Part shown: piece by piece, positions 1-6,147 of the stretch
Layout of the letters: each line of letters opens with the position of its first letter
Position numbering within the stretch: position 1 is the stretch's first letter
From: Candidatus Latescibacterota bacterium
Lineage (GTDB): Bacteria; Latescibacterota; UBA2968; UBA8231
Direction of reading: 5' to 3'
DNA length: 64,000 nt
Assembly: GCA_965204725.1 (NCBI GenBank)
Contig: OZ242005.1
Span: 2,784,001-2,848,000, forward strand
Notes under the pieces: model-generated
Seen by the model: only the letters and a program-made list of their open reading frames with translations
Database searches by the model: none
Told to the model about the DNA's origin: nothing
Program-made: the position numbers and the translations under genes

Positions 1-490
1 CCACGGTTGGCTGGCGGCGCGGCCGGCCGCGCTGGGCAGCGTAGATTACAACGCGCGCAACGCAGTGGTCGAGCCGGAGGGAACGCGCGTTTACTTCCTC
101 GAATTTGCCAAAATCGGTTGGGACTGGACGGAACGGCGCTTGACGCAGTATACTACTAGTATGGGCAGCGGCCGGCCGGATGGGCGCGTCCGCTCGCTGC
201 TAGACGCGCCGGCCGCGCGGTTGTACGCCGAGGTATCCGGGCGCAGCGACGGGGCGCGGGCGCTCGATTGTCACCGAATTTTTTTTCTCCTCAACAGCGC
301 GGCCCTGTTGTGCGCGGCCCTCGACGGCGAGCCGGCCGCGCTGGCCCTGCGCCAACACTGGAAAAGGCCCCTTGCGCGGCTGCGGCAATGCGCGACCATG
401 CTGGCCGAGGGCCTGAGCACAGACCCAAGCGCGGCCGAGTTCAGAAGCCGGTTGCAGTTTTGTTTGTCACCACGCGGAGGTACTCTATGA
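1..490 (+). CDS. Partial aminoglycoside-phosphotransferase/kinase-like protein (5' end outside window)
   Basis: Frame is open from position 2. It reads GSVDYNARN...FLEFAKIGWDW, resembling the APH-family HxDxxxxN and DFE motifs. The stop overlaps the next ATG (ATGA). Confidence 0.5.
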   Translation, partial: HGWLAARPAALGSVDYNARNAVVEPEGTRVYFLEFAKIGWDWTERRLTQYTTSMGSGRPDGRVRSLLDAPAARLYAEVSGRSDGARALDCHRIFFLLNSAALLCAALDGEPAALALRQHWKRPLARLRQCATMLAEGLSTDPSAAEFRSRLQFCLSPRGGTL

Positions 491-753
491 GCGAGTGGAA
501 CACTCTCGATTTTAAGCCCCGGGCCCGGGGCATAATCATCGGCGATATTCCTTGGCTAGCGCGCATCGCCGACAAGGCGCGGGCGCACCAGCAGCAACGC
601 ATCGGCGACTATGTATTTCCCTGACCGGCCGACAAGCGCTTCCTGGAGGAAGTGGAGCTGACAGCCGCAGCATTCGAGGAGATGGTGGCCGCGTCCGACG
701 ACGACGATGCCCTGATCGAAAAAATGAAAGCGCACTTGGCCGGAAAGCACTAG
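487..753 (+). CDS. DUF5069-like small protein, probable selenoprotein (UGA46 = Sec), 88 aa
   Basis: GGAGG RBS precedes ATG 487. MSEW...WLARIADKARAH...GDYVFP-TGA(622-624)-PADKRFLEEV...KH-TAG 753. The TGA sits at the Cys of the DUF5069-type YxxxCPxD motif and a hairpin follows. Confidence 0.8.
637..654 (+). promoter_or_regulatory. Candidate bacterial SECIS hairpin
   Basis: CGCTTCC-TGGA-GGAAGTG forms a 7-bp stem with a G-containing loop that starts 20 nt after the in-frame UGA. Confidence 0.65.
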
Positions 754-754
754 C

Positions 755-1642
755 ATGAGCACCCCAGCGCAACCAGCACGCACGCCCAAGCGGAGAGTCC
801 GGGAGATGGAGGTGGTCGTAGTCCAAGCGCGCCGTGACACCCCAGACACCACCACGCTCTTTATGTCCGCTGGCGACGAGCCGACCCCCTATCAGGCCGG
901 CCACTTCTGCACCATTGATCCGCATCAGTTCGGCGAGTTGGAGCACTTCACCGCCTATTTAGAAGATCAAAAGGGGCAGCGGGAAAAGCCGCGGGCCTAT
1001 TCCATGGCTTCTGCACCGCACGAGCAGCATCTGGCCATCACGATCAAAGAGGAGCGCTACGAGCGCGGTCAGACGCCGTACCCACCGCTGCTGTCGCCGC
1101 TTTTGACGTACTACATCCAAGCGGGCCGGCGGCTGGTCATCAGCGGTTTTACCGGGGCGTACACCTTTCCCACGGATGTCTGCGAGCGCGCCGAGCACAT
1201 TGTCCACGTGTGTGCTGGCAGCGGCATTGTGCCCAACCGGAGCTTGATCAAGGAGAGCCTGCACCGCGGCGACCCGCTCCGGCACACCTTGCTGTTTAGC
1301 AACAAGACGCGCCGCGACATCATTTACTACGAAGAGCTCGAAGCACTGCGGGCGCAGTATCCCAGCCAGCTCGACGTGATCCACTGCATCACCCGCGAAG
1401 ATCCCGTCGGCATTCGCGGTGCCCGCAACGAGCGCATCTCCGGGGAACTCTTGCGCGAAGTCGCGCCCGATCCGTCTAAGGTGATGGCCTATAGCTGCGG
1501 CCCGGGCATCACGCCCTACGAACGCCGGGCGGCCCGGGCCAAGGGCGAGGAGCCGGAGCCGCGCTTCGTCGAAAACATGGTCGCACTCTTGCGCGCCCAC
1601 GGGTTGGACAAAGGTCAGATCCGGCAGGAAAGCTGGGGCTGA
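755..1642 (+). CDS. FAD/NAD(P)-binding ferredoxin-reductase (FNR)-like oxidoreductase
   Basis: RAYS flavin motif, AGSGIVP, CGP and C-terminal ESW. Confidence 0.85.
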   Translation: MSTPAQPARTPKRRVREMEVVVVQARRDTPDTTTLFMSAGDEPTPYQAGHFCTIDPHQFGELEHFTAYLEDQKGQREKPRAYSMASAPHEQHLAITIKEERYERGQTPYPPLLSPLLTYYIQAGRRLVISGFTGAYTFPTDVCERAEHIVHVCAGSGIVPNRSLIKESLHRGDPLRHTLLFSNKTRRDIIYYEELEALRAQYPSQLDVIHCITREDPVGIRGARNERISGELLREVAPDPSKVMAYSCGPGITPYERRAARAKGEEPEPRFVENMVALLRAHGLDKGQIRQESWG

Positions 1643-2605: not shown

Positions 2606-3589
2606 ATGCAGAGACCTGCGATTTACATAGACGGCCAAGAGGGGACGACCGGGCTGCGGATTCGCCAGATGCTCGCCGGGCGCGAGGATGTGGAGGTGTT
2701 GCTCATTCCACCGGAGCATCGCCGGGATCGGCGGGCGCGGGCCGAGTTTCTCAACCGTGCGGATTTGAGCGTGCTCTGCCTGCCCGACGACGCGGCCGCC
2801 GAGGCCCTCGCCTTGCTCGAAAACCCGCAGACCAAGGTCATCGACACGAGCACGGCGCGCCGGGTCCGTCTCGGGTGGGTTTACGGTCAGCCCGAGATTT
2901 CATCCGAGTGGGTTTACGGTCTGCCCGAGATTTCACCCGCGCACAAGGAACAAATTCGCCGGGCGCGGCGAGTCGCCAACTGCGGTTGTTATCCCGTCGG
3001 CTTCATCCTCGCCGTGCGGCCCCTCATCTTGGAAGAGCCGCTTTTGTTGCCAACCGCGCCGCTGACCATCAACGCAGTGTCCGGCTATTCCGGCGGCGGC
3101 CGCAAAATGATCGCCGAATACGAGGGAGCCGACGCCCCCAAGCCCTTCTGTCTGTACGGCCTCAATGGCGACCACAAGCACTTGCCCGAGATGTGGAAAT
3201 TCAGCGGGTGCGAAAAACGACCGCTCTTTGTGCCGTCCGTAGATCATTCGTTCTGCGGCATGGTCGTCAGTACGCCGGTGCCCGCGGAATTTCTCGGCCC
3301 TCCTCGCGTCACGCGCGAAGCCGTGTACGAGGTCTGGCGCGAGCGCTACAAAGACTGTCCCTTTGTGAAGGTGGTCGAGCCTCAAGCCGCTGTGCTGCGC
3401 GACGACAAGTTCCTCGACCTAACCGGGTTGAGCCATACGAATTTCGTCGAGCTATCGGTCTGGGGCGACCCGGACCAAGGGTTGGTTTTGGTCGGGCGGC
3501 TCGACAACCTCGGCAAAGGGGCGGCGGGCAATGCCGTGCAGTGCCTCAACTTGATGCTCGGTCGCGATGAAACCGCAGGGCTGCGCTAG
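2606..3589 (+). CDS. argC: N-acetyl-gamma-glutamyl-phosphate reductase (type 2 ArgC)
   Basis: IDGQEGTTG, ANCGCYP, SGYSGGG, DNLGKGAAGNAVQ. Confidence 0.92.
   Translation: MQRPAIYIDGQEGTTGLRIRQMLAGREDVEVLLIPPEHRRDRRARAEFLNRADLSVLCLPDDAAAEALALLENPQTKVIDTSTARRVRLGWVYGQPEISSEWVYGLPEISPAHKEQIRRARRVANCGCYPVGFILAVRPLILEEPLLLPTAPLTINAVSGYSGGGRKMIAEYEGADAPKPFCLYGLNGDHKHLPEMWKFSGCEKRPLFVPSVDHSFCGMVVSTPVPAEFLGPPRVTREAVYEVWRERYKDCPFVKVVEPQAAVLRDDKFLDLTGLSHTNFVELSVWGDPDQGLVLVGRLDNLGKGAAGNAVQCLNLMLGRDETAGLR
2875..2940 (+). repeat. 33-bp in-frame tandem duplication inside argC
   Basis: GTGGGTTTACGGTCAGCCCGAGATTTCATCCGA followed by GTGGGTTTACGGTCTGCCCGAGATTTCACCCGC. Confidence 0.9.
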
Positions 3590-4339
3590 ATGCTCGTTGA
3601 TAGCCACTGCCATCTCGACCAATTTGCCGATGCCGACGCCGTCCTCGCCGACGCCGCCCAAGCCGGGGTCGCGCAGGTCGTCGCCGTCAGCCAAAGCGTC
3701 AGTTCCATGCGTGCGGTGCGCGCCCTCAAGCAGCGATACCCCCGCCAAGTGCTGGCCGGGCTAGGCTTGCATCCAGCATGGGTCACCCAAGCCACAGCCG
3801 CAGAGCTGGCAGACGGGCTTGCCTATCTGGCCGCGCATCTGGCCGATGCCGATGTCCTCGGGGAGGTCGGCCTCGATTACAAGTGGGCGGTCCATCCAGA
3901 GCAGCAGGCCCAGCAGCAAGACGTCCTCGCGCAGCAGCTCGATCTAGCCGCTCAATGCGGCAAGCCGATCAACCTGCACTCGCGCCGCGCCCAGCGGCAG
4001 ACCTTGGAACGGGCCGTGGAATTTCGCCGCCGCACCCAGCTCAACGCCCAGCTACACTGGTTCACCCAATCCAAAAAACTCGGGCGGATATGCCGTGCGG
4101 AGCGCATTTACGTCTCCGTCGGCCCGTCCGTCCTGTCCGACCCGCAGACCCAAGCCGTGATCGCGGAGCTCGACCGCGAGTTGCTGCTGTTGGAAACGGA
4201 CGCGCCCGTGCCCATCGGCGGGGAAGCGGGCCATCCGGCGCGGGTGGCCGCCGTTGCTACAAAACTAGCCGAACTCATCGGGTTCACCGCGGAGGAGGCC
4301 GCGGCCAATTGGGCACGTTATTTGGGCGAGCGGCCGTGA
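3590..4339 (+). CDS. tatD: TatD-family metal-dependent DNase
   Basis: DSHCHLD, GLHP, GEVGLDY, LHSR, LETDAP. Confidence 0.9.
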   Translation: MLVDSHCHLDQFADADAVLADAAQAGVAQVVAVSQSVSSMRAVRALKQRYPRQVLAGLGLHPAWVTQATAAELADGLAYLAAHLADADVLGEVGLDYKWAVHPEQQAQQQDVLAQQLDLAAQCGKPINLHSRRAQRQTLERAVEFRRRTQLNAQLHWFTQSKKLGRICRAERIYVSVGPSVLSDPQTQAVIAELDRELLLLETDAPVPIGGEAGHPARVAAVATKLAELIGFTAEEAAANWARYLGERP

Positions 4340-4404: not shown

Positions 4405-6147
4405 ATGCCAACGAGCATTTTTGCCCTTGCTTGCGCCCTCGTCTTTTGCGGGCTATCCGGGACAGCAAGCGCCCAACAGGGCCTAGAAAGTTTGGAAAAT
4501 CTGATCGATCTGGGCGGAGGAGACGCCAGATTACAGGCCTTTTCCGCAGCCGACTTACCCGACCTAAATCAGGATTTGACTTCCGGTAAGGCTCGCCTGC
4601 CCGGCAGTTTGAACGTAGATAAGACGCGCATCAGCCAAGATCGCGACATAGACCCCGACGCGTACATCGTCGGCCCCAACGACGTATTGCAGCTCTACAT
4701 CTGGGGCGAATTCGACCAACCCTACACGCTACAGATCGATCCAGAGGGAAAGGTCCTCATCCCCACCGTCGGTTCGTTTCACATTTCGGGCCTGTCGCTG
4801 ACCGCGGCCAAAGAACGCCTCTCAGCCGCAGTCCAAAACAAGTATCCCAACGTGGAAATCAGCATCTCGCTCGTGAGCATGCGCTTCTTCACCGCGTACG
4901 TCACCGGCGCGGTGGTGAACGAGGGCAGTTTCACCATTCATCCGACCACGCGGGTTGCGAATATAATCAAGCAGGCCGGCGGCTTTAGGGACCGGTTGCA
5001 GGGCCAAGGCGTCGAAGAGCAAATCCTGCGCCCCAACCGCGACACGGGCCGGCGCTCCATCAAGGTGTTCCACCGCGACGGCACGGTCGAGCGCGTGGAC
5101 CTCGACATGTTCCTCGCCACCGGCGACCTCGCGCACAATCCCTACGTACGCATGGGCGACGTGGTCCACGTCGCGTTCCGCGACCATTCGGTGTACATCT
5201 TCGGCGCGGTCAACCAAGAGGGCGAATACGAGTTTCTACCCGGGGATACCCTCGGCGACTTAGTGACATTGGCCAAGGGGTTGCGCCACTCCAAGCCGCT
5301 GATCAGTGCTGAGCTCTGGCGCTTTCAGGAGGGGACCGATCAGGCCGAATTCATCGAGTTGAGCGGCGACAAAGAGACGCTGGCGGAGCTGGACTACGAA
5401 AAAATCCGCCACCTTGAGCTGCGCCCCAACGACGCGGTCTTCATCCGAGCGCAGTCCCTGTGGCAGTCCACGCACACGGTCGCGATCTCGGGCGAGGTGC
5501 GGTTCCAAGGCCGCTACCGCATCGAACCCGGTGTCACCCGCATCAAGGACGTGGTGGCAGCGGCCGGCGGCCTAACCGACGAGGCGTCGCTCATTGGCGC
5601 CCGAGTGATTCGCACTCGGGTCCGGGCTGAGAGCGACCCGCAGCTAGAGCAACTAAAAAGACAGAGCGAGGTGGCGGGCCTCACGTACATGAACATCGAG
5701 GATCGGGCTTATCTCAAAACCAAAACCCGCGAGGAAAAGGGGCGGGTCGCGGTCGATTTCGAGCGGTTGTTTATCGAGGGCGACGAGGGGCAAAACATCC
5801 TACTCGCCAGCGGCGACGTGATCTTTTTTCCCATGCAGCGGCACACCGTCAGCGTTAGTGGCCAAGTGGAGCGAGCCGGGCTGATCGACTACGAGATGGG
5901 CCGCGACGTGCGCTACTACATAACCAAGGCCGGCGGGTACTTGTACGACGCCGACAAACGCAATGCCCGCCTAGTCCGGGCGCGCACGGGCGTCCGCGAG
6001 AAACTCAAAGGCAACTTGATCGTTGAAGTGGGCGATGAAATATGGGTGCCCCAGAAGGAACGCATCAACTATTGGGCACTCACCCAAGAGACCATTCGCA
6101 CCGCCGCCAGCATCCTAGCCCTCGTCCTCGCAGTGCGGTCTCTTTAG
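4405..6147 (+). CDS. Polysaccharide export protein (Wza/KpsD-like, SLBB repeats)
   Basis: Signal peptide, YIVGPNDVL Poly_export motif, repeated VxGxV..G.Y SLBB units. Confidence 0.85.
   Translation: MPTSIFALACALVFCGLSGTASAQQGLESLENLIDLGGGDARLQAFSAADLPDLNQDLTSGKARLPGSLNVDKTRISQDRDIDPDAYIVGPNDVLQLYIWGEFDQPYTLQIDPEGKVLIPTVGSFHISGLSLTAAKERLSAAVQNKYPNVEISISLVSMRFFTAYVTGAVVNEGSFTIHPTTRVANIIKQAGGFRDRLQGQGVEEQILRPNRDTGRRSIKVFHRDGTVERVDLDMFLATGDLAHNPYVRMGDVVHVAFRDHSVYIFGAVNQEGEYEFLPGDTLGDLVTLAKGLRHSKPLISAELWRFQEGTDQAEFIELSGDKETLAELDYEKIRHLELRPNDAVFIRAQSLWQSTHTVAISGEVRFQGRYRIEPGVTRIKDVVAAAGGLTDEASLIGARVIRTRVRAESDPQLEQLKRQSEVAGLTYMNIEDRAYLKTKTREEKGRVAVDFERLFIEGDEGQNILLASGDVIFFPMQRHTVSVSGQVERAGLIDYEMGRDVRYYITKAGGYLYDADKRNARLVRARTGVREKLKGNLIVEVGDEIWVPQKERINYWALTQETIRTAASILALVLAVRSL

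Follow-up and report, generated by a model that had tools for sequence, protein, structure and literature searches.

Does the short reading frame at positions 487–753 of the DNA above, broken by one in-frame TGA at 622–624, encode a selenoprotein, and which of its neighbours would such a protein work with? The window, by which we mean the whole stretch analysed, comprises 64,000 nucleotides of contig OZ242005.1 (positions 2,784,001 to 2,848,000, forward strand; assembly GCA_965204725.1) from a Candidatus Latescibacterota bacterium. An original prediction from the letters of the window had read the frame as a DUF5069-like selenoprotein that is translationally coupled to an FNR-type reductase and may form with it an undescribed selenium-dependent redox module. 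We computed the integrity of the gene, the pairing of selenocysteine (Sec) with cysteine (Cys) among homologues, the conservation of a putative Sec insertion sequence (SECIS) hairpin, the Sec machinery of the genome and the folds of the proteins. On this evidence, positions 487–753 very probably constitute a genuine selenoprotein gene that is decoded via a SECIS element within its coding region.

A short DUF5069 gene with one in-frame TGA

Every gene element named by the original prediction is present in the sequence. On the forward strand, a Shine-Dalgarno-like GGAGG, read directly at 476–480, stands 6 nt 5' of the ATG at 487. The frame then runs through a single TGA (622–624, in the context GDYVFP-TGA-PADKRFL) to a TAG at 751–753, and after the single base C754 the reductase ATG follows at 755–757, a gap of 1 nt. 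Read through the TGA, the frame specifies 88 residues with Sec at residue 46 (U46).

This 88-residue product matched the Pfam family DUF5069 (PF16798) at 49.4 bits (cut-off 27, E 6.6e-13) over residues 11–84, a match that spans the TGA. The domain is incomplete, covering profile positions 4–77 of 133 with the C-terminal third absent, and since close homologues are likewise about 89 aa long we regard it as a short subfamily. A Pfam alignment that reaches profile position 101 (window 813) crosses the TAG stop and was read as an over-extension. No NCBIfam model matched the small protein at E≤0.1.

Searching 5.8 billion clustered proteins with the read-through product gave 45 matches, 44 of them with PF16798, about 89 aa long and 49–72% identical over 91–100% of the query. 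Opposite the TGA, no fewer than 90% of the alignment rows have Cys, within the motif Y-x-Y-P-C-P-A-D; the query row of that alignment carries C in place of U, substituted by the tool. Both halves of the protein are conserved. The UGA of the window is thus aligned with the Cys of YxYP-C-PxD and flanked on both sides by conserved sequence, as had been predicted.

Conservation of the TGA among relatives

We ran the alignment profile, reading through stops, over the window's genome and 60 relatives, calling an orthologue at E≤1e-30. Fifty-four of the 61 genomes, from four families of one class, contain an orthologue, and 51 of these 54 have exactly one in-frame TGA; the three orthologues with no in-frame TGA are those of genomes G036, G053 and G037. 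The Sec column was inspected in 50 loci and held TGA in 47 and TGC in 3. Within the window's genus, TGA occupied the same codon in 29 of 30 loci and Cys in one, and among other genera and families the figures were 18 of 20 for TGA and 2 of 20 for TGC. A species-wide scan, which took one genome per species across bacteria and archaea and whose results rest on the best 80 loci, found TGA at 63 loci and TGC or TGT at 17; these loci overlap with the 61-genome set, and the two sets of counts are not independent. The labels of the best 80 loci are Latescibacterota and Poribacteria, together with bins named Gemmatimonadota, Planctomycetota, Opitutales and Handelsmanbacteria. The UGA is therefore not confined to this assembly, an outcome on which the original prediction had staked itself.

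We then considered the 40 codons past the UGA in 13 comparisons with the window. The dN/dS ratio was 0.12–0.51 in 11 comparisons, 1.03 in one and undefined in one, and the low values indicate that the part after the UGA is translated. Likewise, the recurrence of the same TGA column together with a hairpin in dozens of genomes is more than chance would produce.

A SECIS-type hairpin within the coding sequence

The hairpin on which the prediction had relied, CGCTTCC/TGGA/GGAAGTG, lies at 637–654 on the forward strand (stem 637–643 and 648–654, loop UGGA at 644–647), where it also codes for R-F-L-E-E-V. Its 7 bp, one of them G-U, were as described; the distance of 20 nt from the UGA that had been given for it fits the loop, which begins 19 nt past the TGA, and not the stem, which begins 12 nt past it. 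The bSECIS model as described in PMC13188914 (Fig. 2 legend) specifies a loop of 3–9 nt, a stem of 4–16 bp, a G in the first two loop positions, a UGA-loop distance of 16–37 nt and a minimum free energy (MFE) of at most -7.5 kcal/mol. With a 4-nt loop carrying G at position 2, a 6–7 bp stem, a distance of 19 nt and an MFE of -8.0 kcal/mol for the isolated hairpin, the element of the window lies within all of these limits. The selD gene of the same genome served as an internal control and showed a strong hairpin whose loop likewise starts 19 nt past its UGA. An Rfam scan of window positions 400–900 at E≤1 returned no family, as was to be expected, since no general Rfam model covering such bacterial elements is known to us.

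Across 66 distinct Sec forms, the 48 nt from the TGA could be aligned free of gaps, so pairing could be compared column by column. In the 7-bp helix 93.9% of cells were paired, compared with a mean of 81.1% after shuffling (none of 500 shuffles as high), and sliding the 3' partners by 1–3 columns reduced pairing to 29–69%. Two pairs show the compensatory changes expected of a helix: pair 18-31 is C-G in 43 Sec forms, G-C in 23 and unpaired in none, and pair 17-32 is G-U in 24, A-U in 22, G-C in 10, U-A in 8 and otherwise in 2. The outermost pair is retained in 41 of the 66. The six core pairs are complete in 63 of 66 Sec forms as against 1 of 17 Cys forms. Codon usage follows the same division: beneath the hairpin, the Sec forms hold TTC in 64/66, CTG in 66/66, GAG in 65/66 and GAA in 61/66, and in the Cys forms both codon and residue are free to vary. 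In both its geometry and its covariation, the hairpin bears out the SECIS element that had been proposed.

Selenocysteine machinery and the genetic code

All four genes of the Sec pathway that the prediction led us to look for, selA, selB, selC and selD, are present in the genome. SelA scored 478 bits, the SelB winged-helix domain 62 bits in a frame of 645 residues, and selD, which has one TGA, 374 bits. The tRNA-Sec scored 70 bits (gathering score 47) and was reported by ARAGORN as tRNA-SeC with anticodon TCA. The selD gene is itself a selenoprotein gene, with its UGA in the classical motif CGG-U-ASK (G000:C1:3670444; L005 position 1531).

A search of the 61 related genomes for SelA was positive in 58. 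It was not found in G033 (81% complete, with a Sec form), G050 (91%, without an orthologue) or G036 (93%), and G036, one of these three, is the only Cys-form genome of the window's own family. TGA is otherwise an ordinary stop codon here: it terminates both genes that flank the small gene, which argues against a reassigned code.

Family-wide variation at the Sec column and predicted fold

The original prediction had also taken a conserved Cys to be a property of DUF5069 proteins, a claim that a family survey bears out in part. The survey scored a profile against 1.84 billion representatives and retained 508 members at E≤0.001, of which we analysed 149 of the best-scoring 150. The 151 domain instances in these 149 best-scoring proteins hold Cys at the Cys/Sec column in 110 cases, Ser in 31, Gly in 4, Asn in 2, Ala in 2, Trp in 1 and Lys in 1. 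The Ser cases are mostly multi-domain DUF5069 forms. In the window's genome, a paralogue of 444 residues with three tandem DUF5069 domains (G000:C1:3890841-3892173; L015) has residues other than Cys at the column, as in Y-G-D-D-S-G-L-D; two further DUF5069 paralogues of the same genome have the Cys. The multi-domain form is recurrent in the representative library, with Ser as its usual residue at the column.

Twelve of the 149 gene calls stop exactly before the Sec column, at ...Y-I/V-Y-P (P0055, P0067–P0069, P0071, P0073, P0078, P0084, P0087, P0088, P0092 and P0158). These are Sec forms cut off by annotation. One further protein, P0047, has W at the Sec column and was probably called with a genetic code in which TGA stands for Trp.

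An AlphaFold2 model built on a 46-row alignment (pLDDT 82.5, pTM 0.70) places helices at residues 24–35, 47–55, 60–69 and 73–87, with Sec46 directly preceding helix 47–55. Its sole clear structural match was 3omd (Z 10.9, rmsd 2.4 A over 83 aligned residues; the runner-up reached Z 3.6), which Foldseek matched with probability 1.00 and TM 0.74 and which the sequence profile matched at E 2.8e-12 with the Cys aligned. The window protein resembles 3omd, an uncharacterised protein of Leptospirillum rubarum, and the DUF5069 family in its above-cut-off sequence score, its fold and the position of the Cys; it differs from them in the missing C-terminal third and in having Sec for Cys. The model is helical, and none of the fold matches listed is thioredoxin-like, so we see no thioredoxin fold, although a family beyond those listed may be.

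The read-through protein of the window contains no Cys. With a single Sec and no Cys, its selenol would be the one reactive group, without a resolving partner in the protein. Five basic residues of the N-terminal half are invariant (K10, R12, R14, R26 and K30), and these may be candidates for holding an anionic ligand or a partner, as judged from the alignment.

An upstream kinase-like gene is the steadier neighbour

The original prediction had looked downstream of the small gene and made no mention of an overlap on its other side. The upstream gene, here called UP, lies on the forward strand with its 3' part at window positions 2–490; it starts 503 bases upstream of the window (G000:C1:2783498), encodes 330 aa in full (ORF L041:512-1504) and ends in a TGA at 488–490 that overlaps the selenoprotein ATG at 487 (ATGA). 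By this overlap, the coupling of the small gene to UP is no looser than that to the reductase.

By sequence, UP is hard to place. Four members of its family matched no Pfam family even at E≤10, the APH model PF01636 included, and single-sequence and profile searches of the PDB gave chance-level matches only. By structure, its AlphaFold2 model (pLDDT 94.1, pTM 0.91) matched 291 PDB chains at E≤0.001 in Foldseek; all those listed are APH/ChoK-like phosphotransferases, the best being 8agy (E 9e-8). The top matches comprise corramycin, aminoglycoside and macrolide phosphotransferases, homoserine kinase and N-acetylhexosamine kinase, and the ESM Atlas likewise returned APH clusters. The UP alignment has an invariant Lys, an invariant Glu and an invariant D-x-N-x-x-N loop. 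We are confident in assigning the predicted fold of UP as bilobal and APH/choline-kinase-like. UP thus shares a predicted fold and these invariant residues with the APH/choline-kinase-like small-molecule kinases, but it matches no Pfam APH model, and our searches turned up no such kinase paired with a selenoprotein. A TGA inside the UP homologue of genome G057 was considered as a possible Sec codon and proved to be the ordinary stop codon of that gene; there is no Sec form of UP there.

For neighbour counts, we built profiles from the loci themselves and scored them over the best 80 species-wide loci, among which the window's genus accounts for the 28 closest (L071–L097 and L099) and the other 52 are counted as outside the genus. 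UP stands upstream of the small gene in 62 of the 80 loci and in 34 of the 52 outside the genus, a steadier neighbour than the reductase. At least 38 of the 80 have the UP frame terminating at the small gene's start codon, and in four of five genomes in which the two are not adjacent a UP-family gene is found elsewhere.

The FNR-type reductase

The reductase gene (755–1642, forward strand) encodes 295 aa without an Fe-S domain and matches Pfam NAD_binding_1 at E 1.6e-13. Its NCBIfam matches, to PaaE, NqrF and FNR, are partial and each below cut-off; its nearest PDB sequences are a nitrate reductase FAD fragment, FNR and cytochrome b5 reductase, at about E 6e-8. A protein search with its sequence returned near-identical relatives only. 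Some doubt attaches to the true start of the reductase, on which the 1-nt coupling depends, because many public calls of the orthologue are 278 aa rather than 295 aa long, consistent with a start at Met18 (window 806). In genome G005 the orthologue is split into two overlapping pieces in different frames (L031, L072), suggestive of either a frameshift or a mistake in sequencing.

In the window's genus, the reductase occurs at a constant offset, with the 1-nt spacing, in 28 of 30 loci. Of the 80 species-wide loci, 41 have an FNR gene alongside. Outside the genus it adjoins 13 of 52, and 12 of these 13 are Cys forms and one a Sec form. Altogether 12 of the 17 Cys forms, from several lineages, have the FNR gene next to them, and in one Cys form (L107) the FNR start codon overlaps the stop of the small gene. 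Two genomes (G031, G032) have the FNR orthologue elsewhere in the genome, at 64–66% identity.

The arrangement is reminiscent of FNR-type reductases with a small acceptor, such as ferredoxin-NADP reductase with ferredoxin or cytochrome b5 reductase with cytochrome b5, in that a plain two-domain FAD/NAD(P)H reductase is encoded beside a small protein. It differs from those systems in that the small protein of the window has no recognised cofactor motif and the pairing, known here from genes, occurs in only part of the family.

Elsewhere in the family the surroundings are different again. The Poribacteria loci have UPF0182 and P-protein (chorismate mutase/prephenate dehydratase) genes as neighbours, several Latescibacterota families have an RsmD-like methyltransferase gene upstream, and other loci have enolase-superfamily or PhyH genes. 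Because contexts vary among phyla, no partner is universal.

Interpretation and alternative explanations

In our working model, the UGA at 622–624 would be decoded as Sec by SelB and tRNA-Sec, guided by the hairpin at 637–654 within the coding sequence. The product would adopt a mostly helical, short DUF5069 fold, with Sec, as part of a P-U-P-x-D motif, where the second helix begins. Its expression would be from a compact operon, in which the gene for an APH/choline-kinase-like phosphotransferase precedes its own and, in the window's genus, one for an FNR-type flavoprotein follows at 1 nt. The small protein may serve a pathway set by the kinase-like enzyme, and where the FNR gene is present the flavoprotein could give NAD(P)H-derived electrons to regenerate the selenol or to act through it. 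Selenium insertion, the chemistry and both partnerships are the parts of this model that we infer. That Cys has repeatedly been swapped for Sec at a helix N-terminus, with no second Cys in the protein, points to redox or nucleophilic chemistry.

Could the TGA be a nonsense mutation, or the locus a pseudogene or an assembly error, so that the gene is dead or only 45 residues are made? Translation table 11 does stop the frame at 622–624, and the 12 truncated gene calls were made in just this way. A TGA shared by 51 of 54 orthologues and 63 of 80 loci under several phylum labels speaks against it, as do a downstream frame that is under purifying selection and matches the Cys homologues to its end and a conserved, covarying hairpin 3' of the TGA; together they leave this explanation barely credible. 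We also find it very unlikely that the UGA is decoded in some other way, through a code reassigned to Trp or Gly or through near-cognate read-through inserting Cys or Trp. The W of P0047 would fit such decoding, but TGA terminates both neighbours, the residue in homologues is Cys and not Trp or Gly, the Sec machinery is complete and accompanied by a SECIS-type hairpin, and the Cys-form genome G036 is one in which SelA was not found. Decoding as Sec is thus the reading we retain, and the alternatives that matter more concern the company the protein keeps.

The two-component module of the original prediction would make the FNR-type flavoprotein a dedicated NAD(P)H-dependent reductase of the selenoprotein, the pair being one functional unit. 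The tight gene order in the genus, the adjacency in 12 of 17 Cys forms and the overlap in L107 agree with it, and a reductase with neither an Fe-S nor a haem domain needs an external acceptor. The module does not extend to the Sec forms in general: outside the genus, FNR adjoins 1 of 35 of them, and three genomes from other families carry the Sec gene without a close FNR orthologue (in G052 and G038 none was found at E≤1e-5, and the best that G044 offers is a weak match over part of the sequence, E 9.2e-6 at 32% identity). Furthermore, the small protein has no second Cys that could form a reducible Se-S bond, and we know of no FNR-family flavoprotein that reduces selenols or selenenyl species directly. 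We consider such a dedicated pair rather unlikely, and a looser link of the small protein to FNR, argued from gene order, doubtful. A free-standing antioxidant or selenium/sulfur carrier, with no dedicated partner and with neighbours that reflect inherited gene order, would suit a protein with a single reactive residue whose context differs among phyla. It sits poorly with the recurrence, at 38 or more of the 80 loci, of the ATGA overlap between the small gene and its kinase-like neighbour and with the presence of the UP family elsewhere in four of the five non-adjacent genomes, and we hold it, too, to be on the unlikely side. A link of the small protein to the kinase-like gene, again suggested by gene order, is plausible, if a little short of an even call. 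A more specific scheme makes the small protein the selenol-bearing subunit of an undescribed enzyme system: the kinase would activate a substrate by phosphorylation, Sec at the helix end, with help from the invariant basic residues, would attack it (forming a covalent Se-substrate intermediate) or reduce it, and FNR would recycle the selenol with NAD(P)H in some lineages. As a whole this seems improbable. Were it true, Sec would have a new catalytic use, on an all-helical scaffold unlike thioredoxin, and one that is widespread in uncultured phyla, sponge-associated ones among them.

Several further observations weigh against a selenoprotein gene with these partners. The stem is not exclusive to Sec forms, because three Cys forms retain most or all of its pairs (L098 with 6/6, L138 and L139 with 5/6 each); from their sequences we read these stems as probable recent Sec-to-Cys conversions. 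Because the conserved peptide F-L-E-E codes the stem, constraint on the protein adds to the conservation of the hairpin. The compensatory changes amount to a few clade-shared events (in Poribacteria and some Latescibacterota families), and the shuffle control ignores kinship. UP, for its part, was not found in G038 (95% complete) and is not adjacent in Poribacteria and three Latescibacterota families, and the kinase and FNR partnerships alike are argued from gene order. The gene is covered by metatranscriptome contigs (four runs, each from a different study) at about 85–95% identity. None of the 40 differences listed for them touches 622–624, with 196 more beyond that listing; such contigs are no proof of transcription and were not counted as evidence. 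The Cys form of L098 (TGT; L098:2636-2683) combines its full 6-bp stem with a loop of UACA, not UGGA, and looks like a fossil SECIS.

Relation to known selenoproteins

We compared the family with the 119 prokaryotic selenoprotein families in Table 1 of a 2026 review (PMC13188914). Neither DUF5069/PF16798 nor a matching motif is among them, and most entries of that table are NCBIfam models, none of which matches the small protein. A full-text literature search found no paper on DUF5069 or PF16798. On this evidence, the gene represents a new family of a known gene kind; the comparison covered Table 1, and the supplementary family list of BSepDB (PMC13326102) lies outside it. Like the known bacterial selenoproteins represented by Sec-SelD and the families of that table, the window family places UGA on a conserved Cys, mixes Sec and Cys among close relatives, has a stem-loop at the 16–37 nt spacing and occurs in a genome with selA, selB, selC and selD. 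It differs from them in being unlisted in the table, in being helical and not thioredoxin-like, and in having P-U-P-x-D without the partner Cys of UxxC/CxxU.

The family is a well-supported addition to the prokaryotic selenoproteome, from phyla that have hardly any representatives in culture (Latescibacterota, Poribacteria and their relatives), and is nearly universal there among the genomes searched. It offers a first functional clue for DUF5069, namely that its conserved Cys pays to be upgraded to Sec. It also exposes a systematic annotation error, public gene calls that end at the UGA, as in 12 of the 149 best-scoring representative proteins. Finally, it picks out a small operon suited to bench work, in which the selenoprotein gene is accompanied by a kinase-fold gene of no assigned class and, for some members of the family, by an FNR-type reductase gene.

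Genes downstream of the cluster

The reductase is followed on the forward strand by a family 2 glycosyltransferase (GT2) gene at 1643–2599 (Pfam Glycos_transf_2, E 7.5e-23) and a gene for an ArgC-like semialdehyde dehydrogenase at 2606–3589 (Pfam Semialdhyde_dhC_1, E 1.1e-25), both of which are frequent downstream genes in related loci. Further 3' of the cluster lie a TatD-family hydrolase gene (3590–4339) and one for a polysaccharide export protein with Poly_export and SLBB domains (4405–6147), which hint at a cell-envelope or polysaccharide context in the window's genus.

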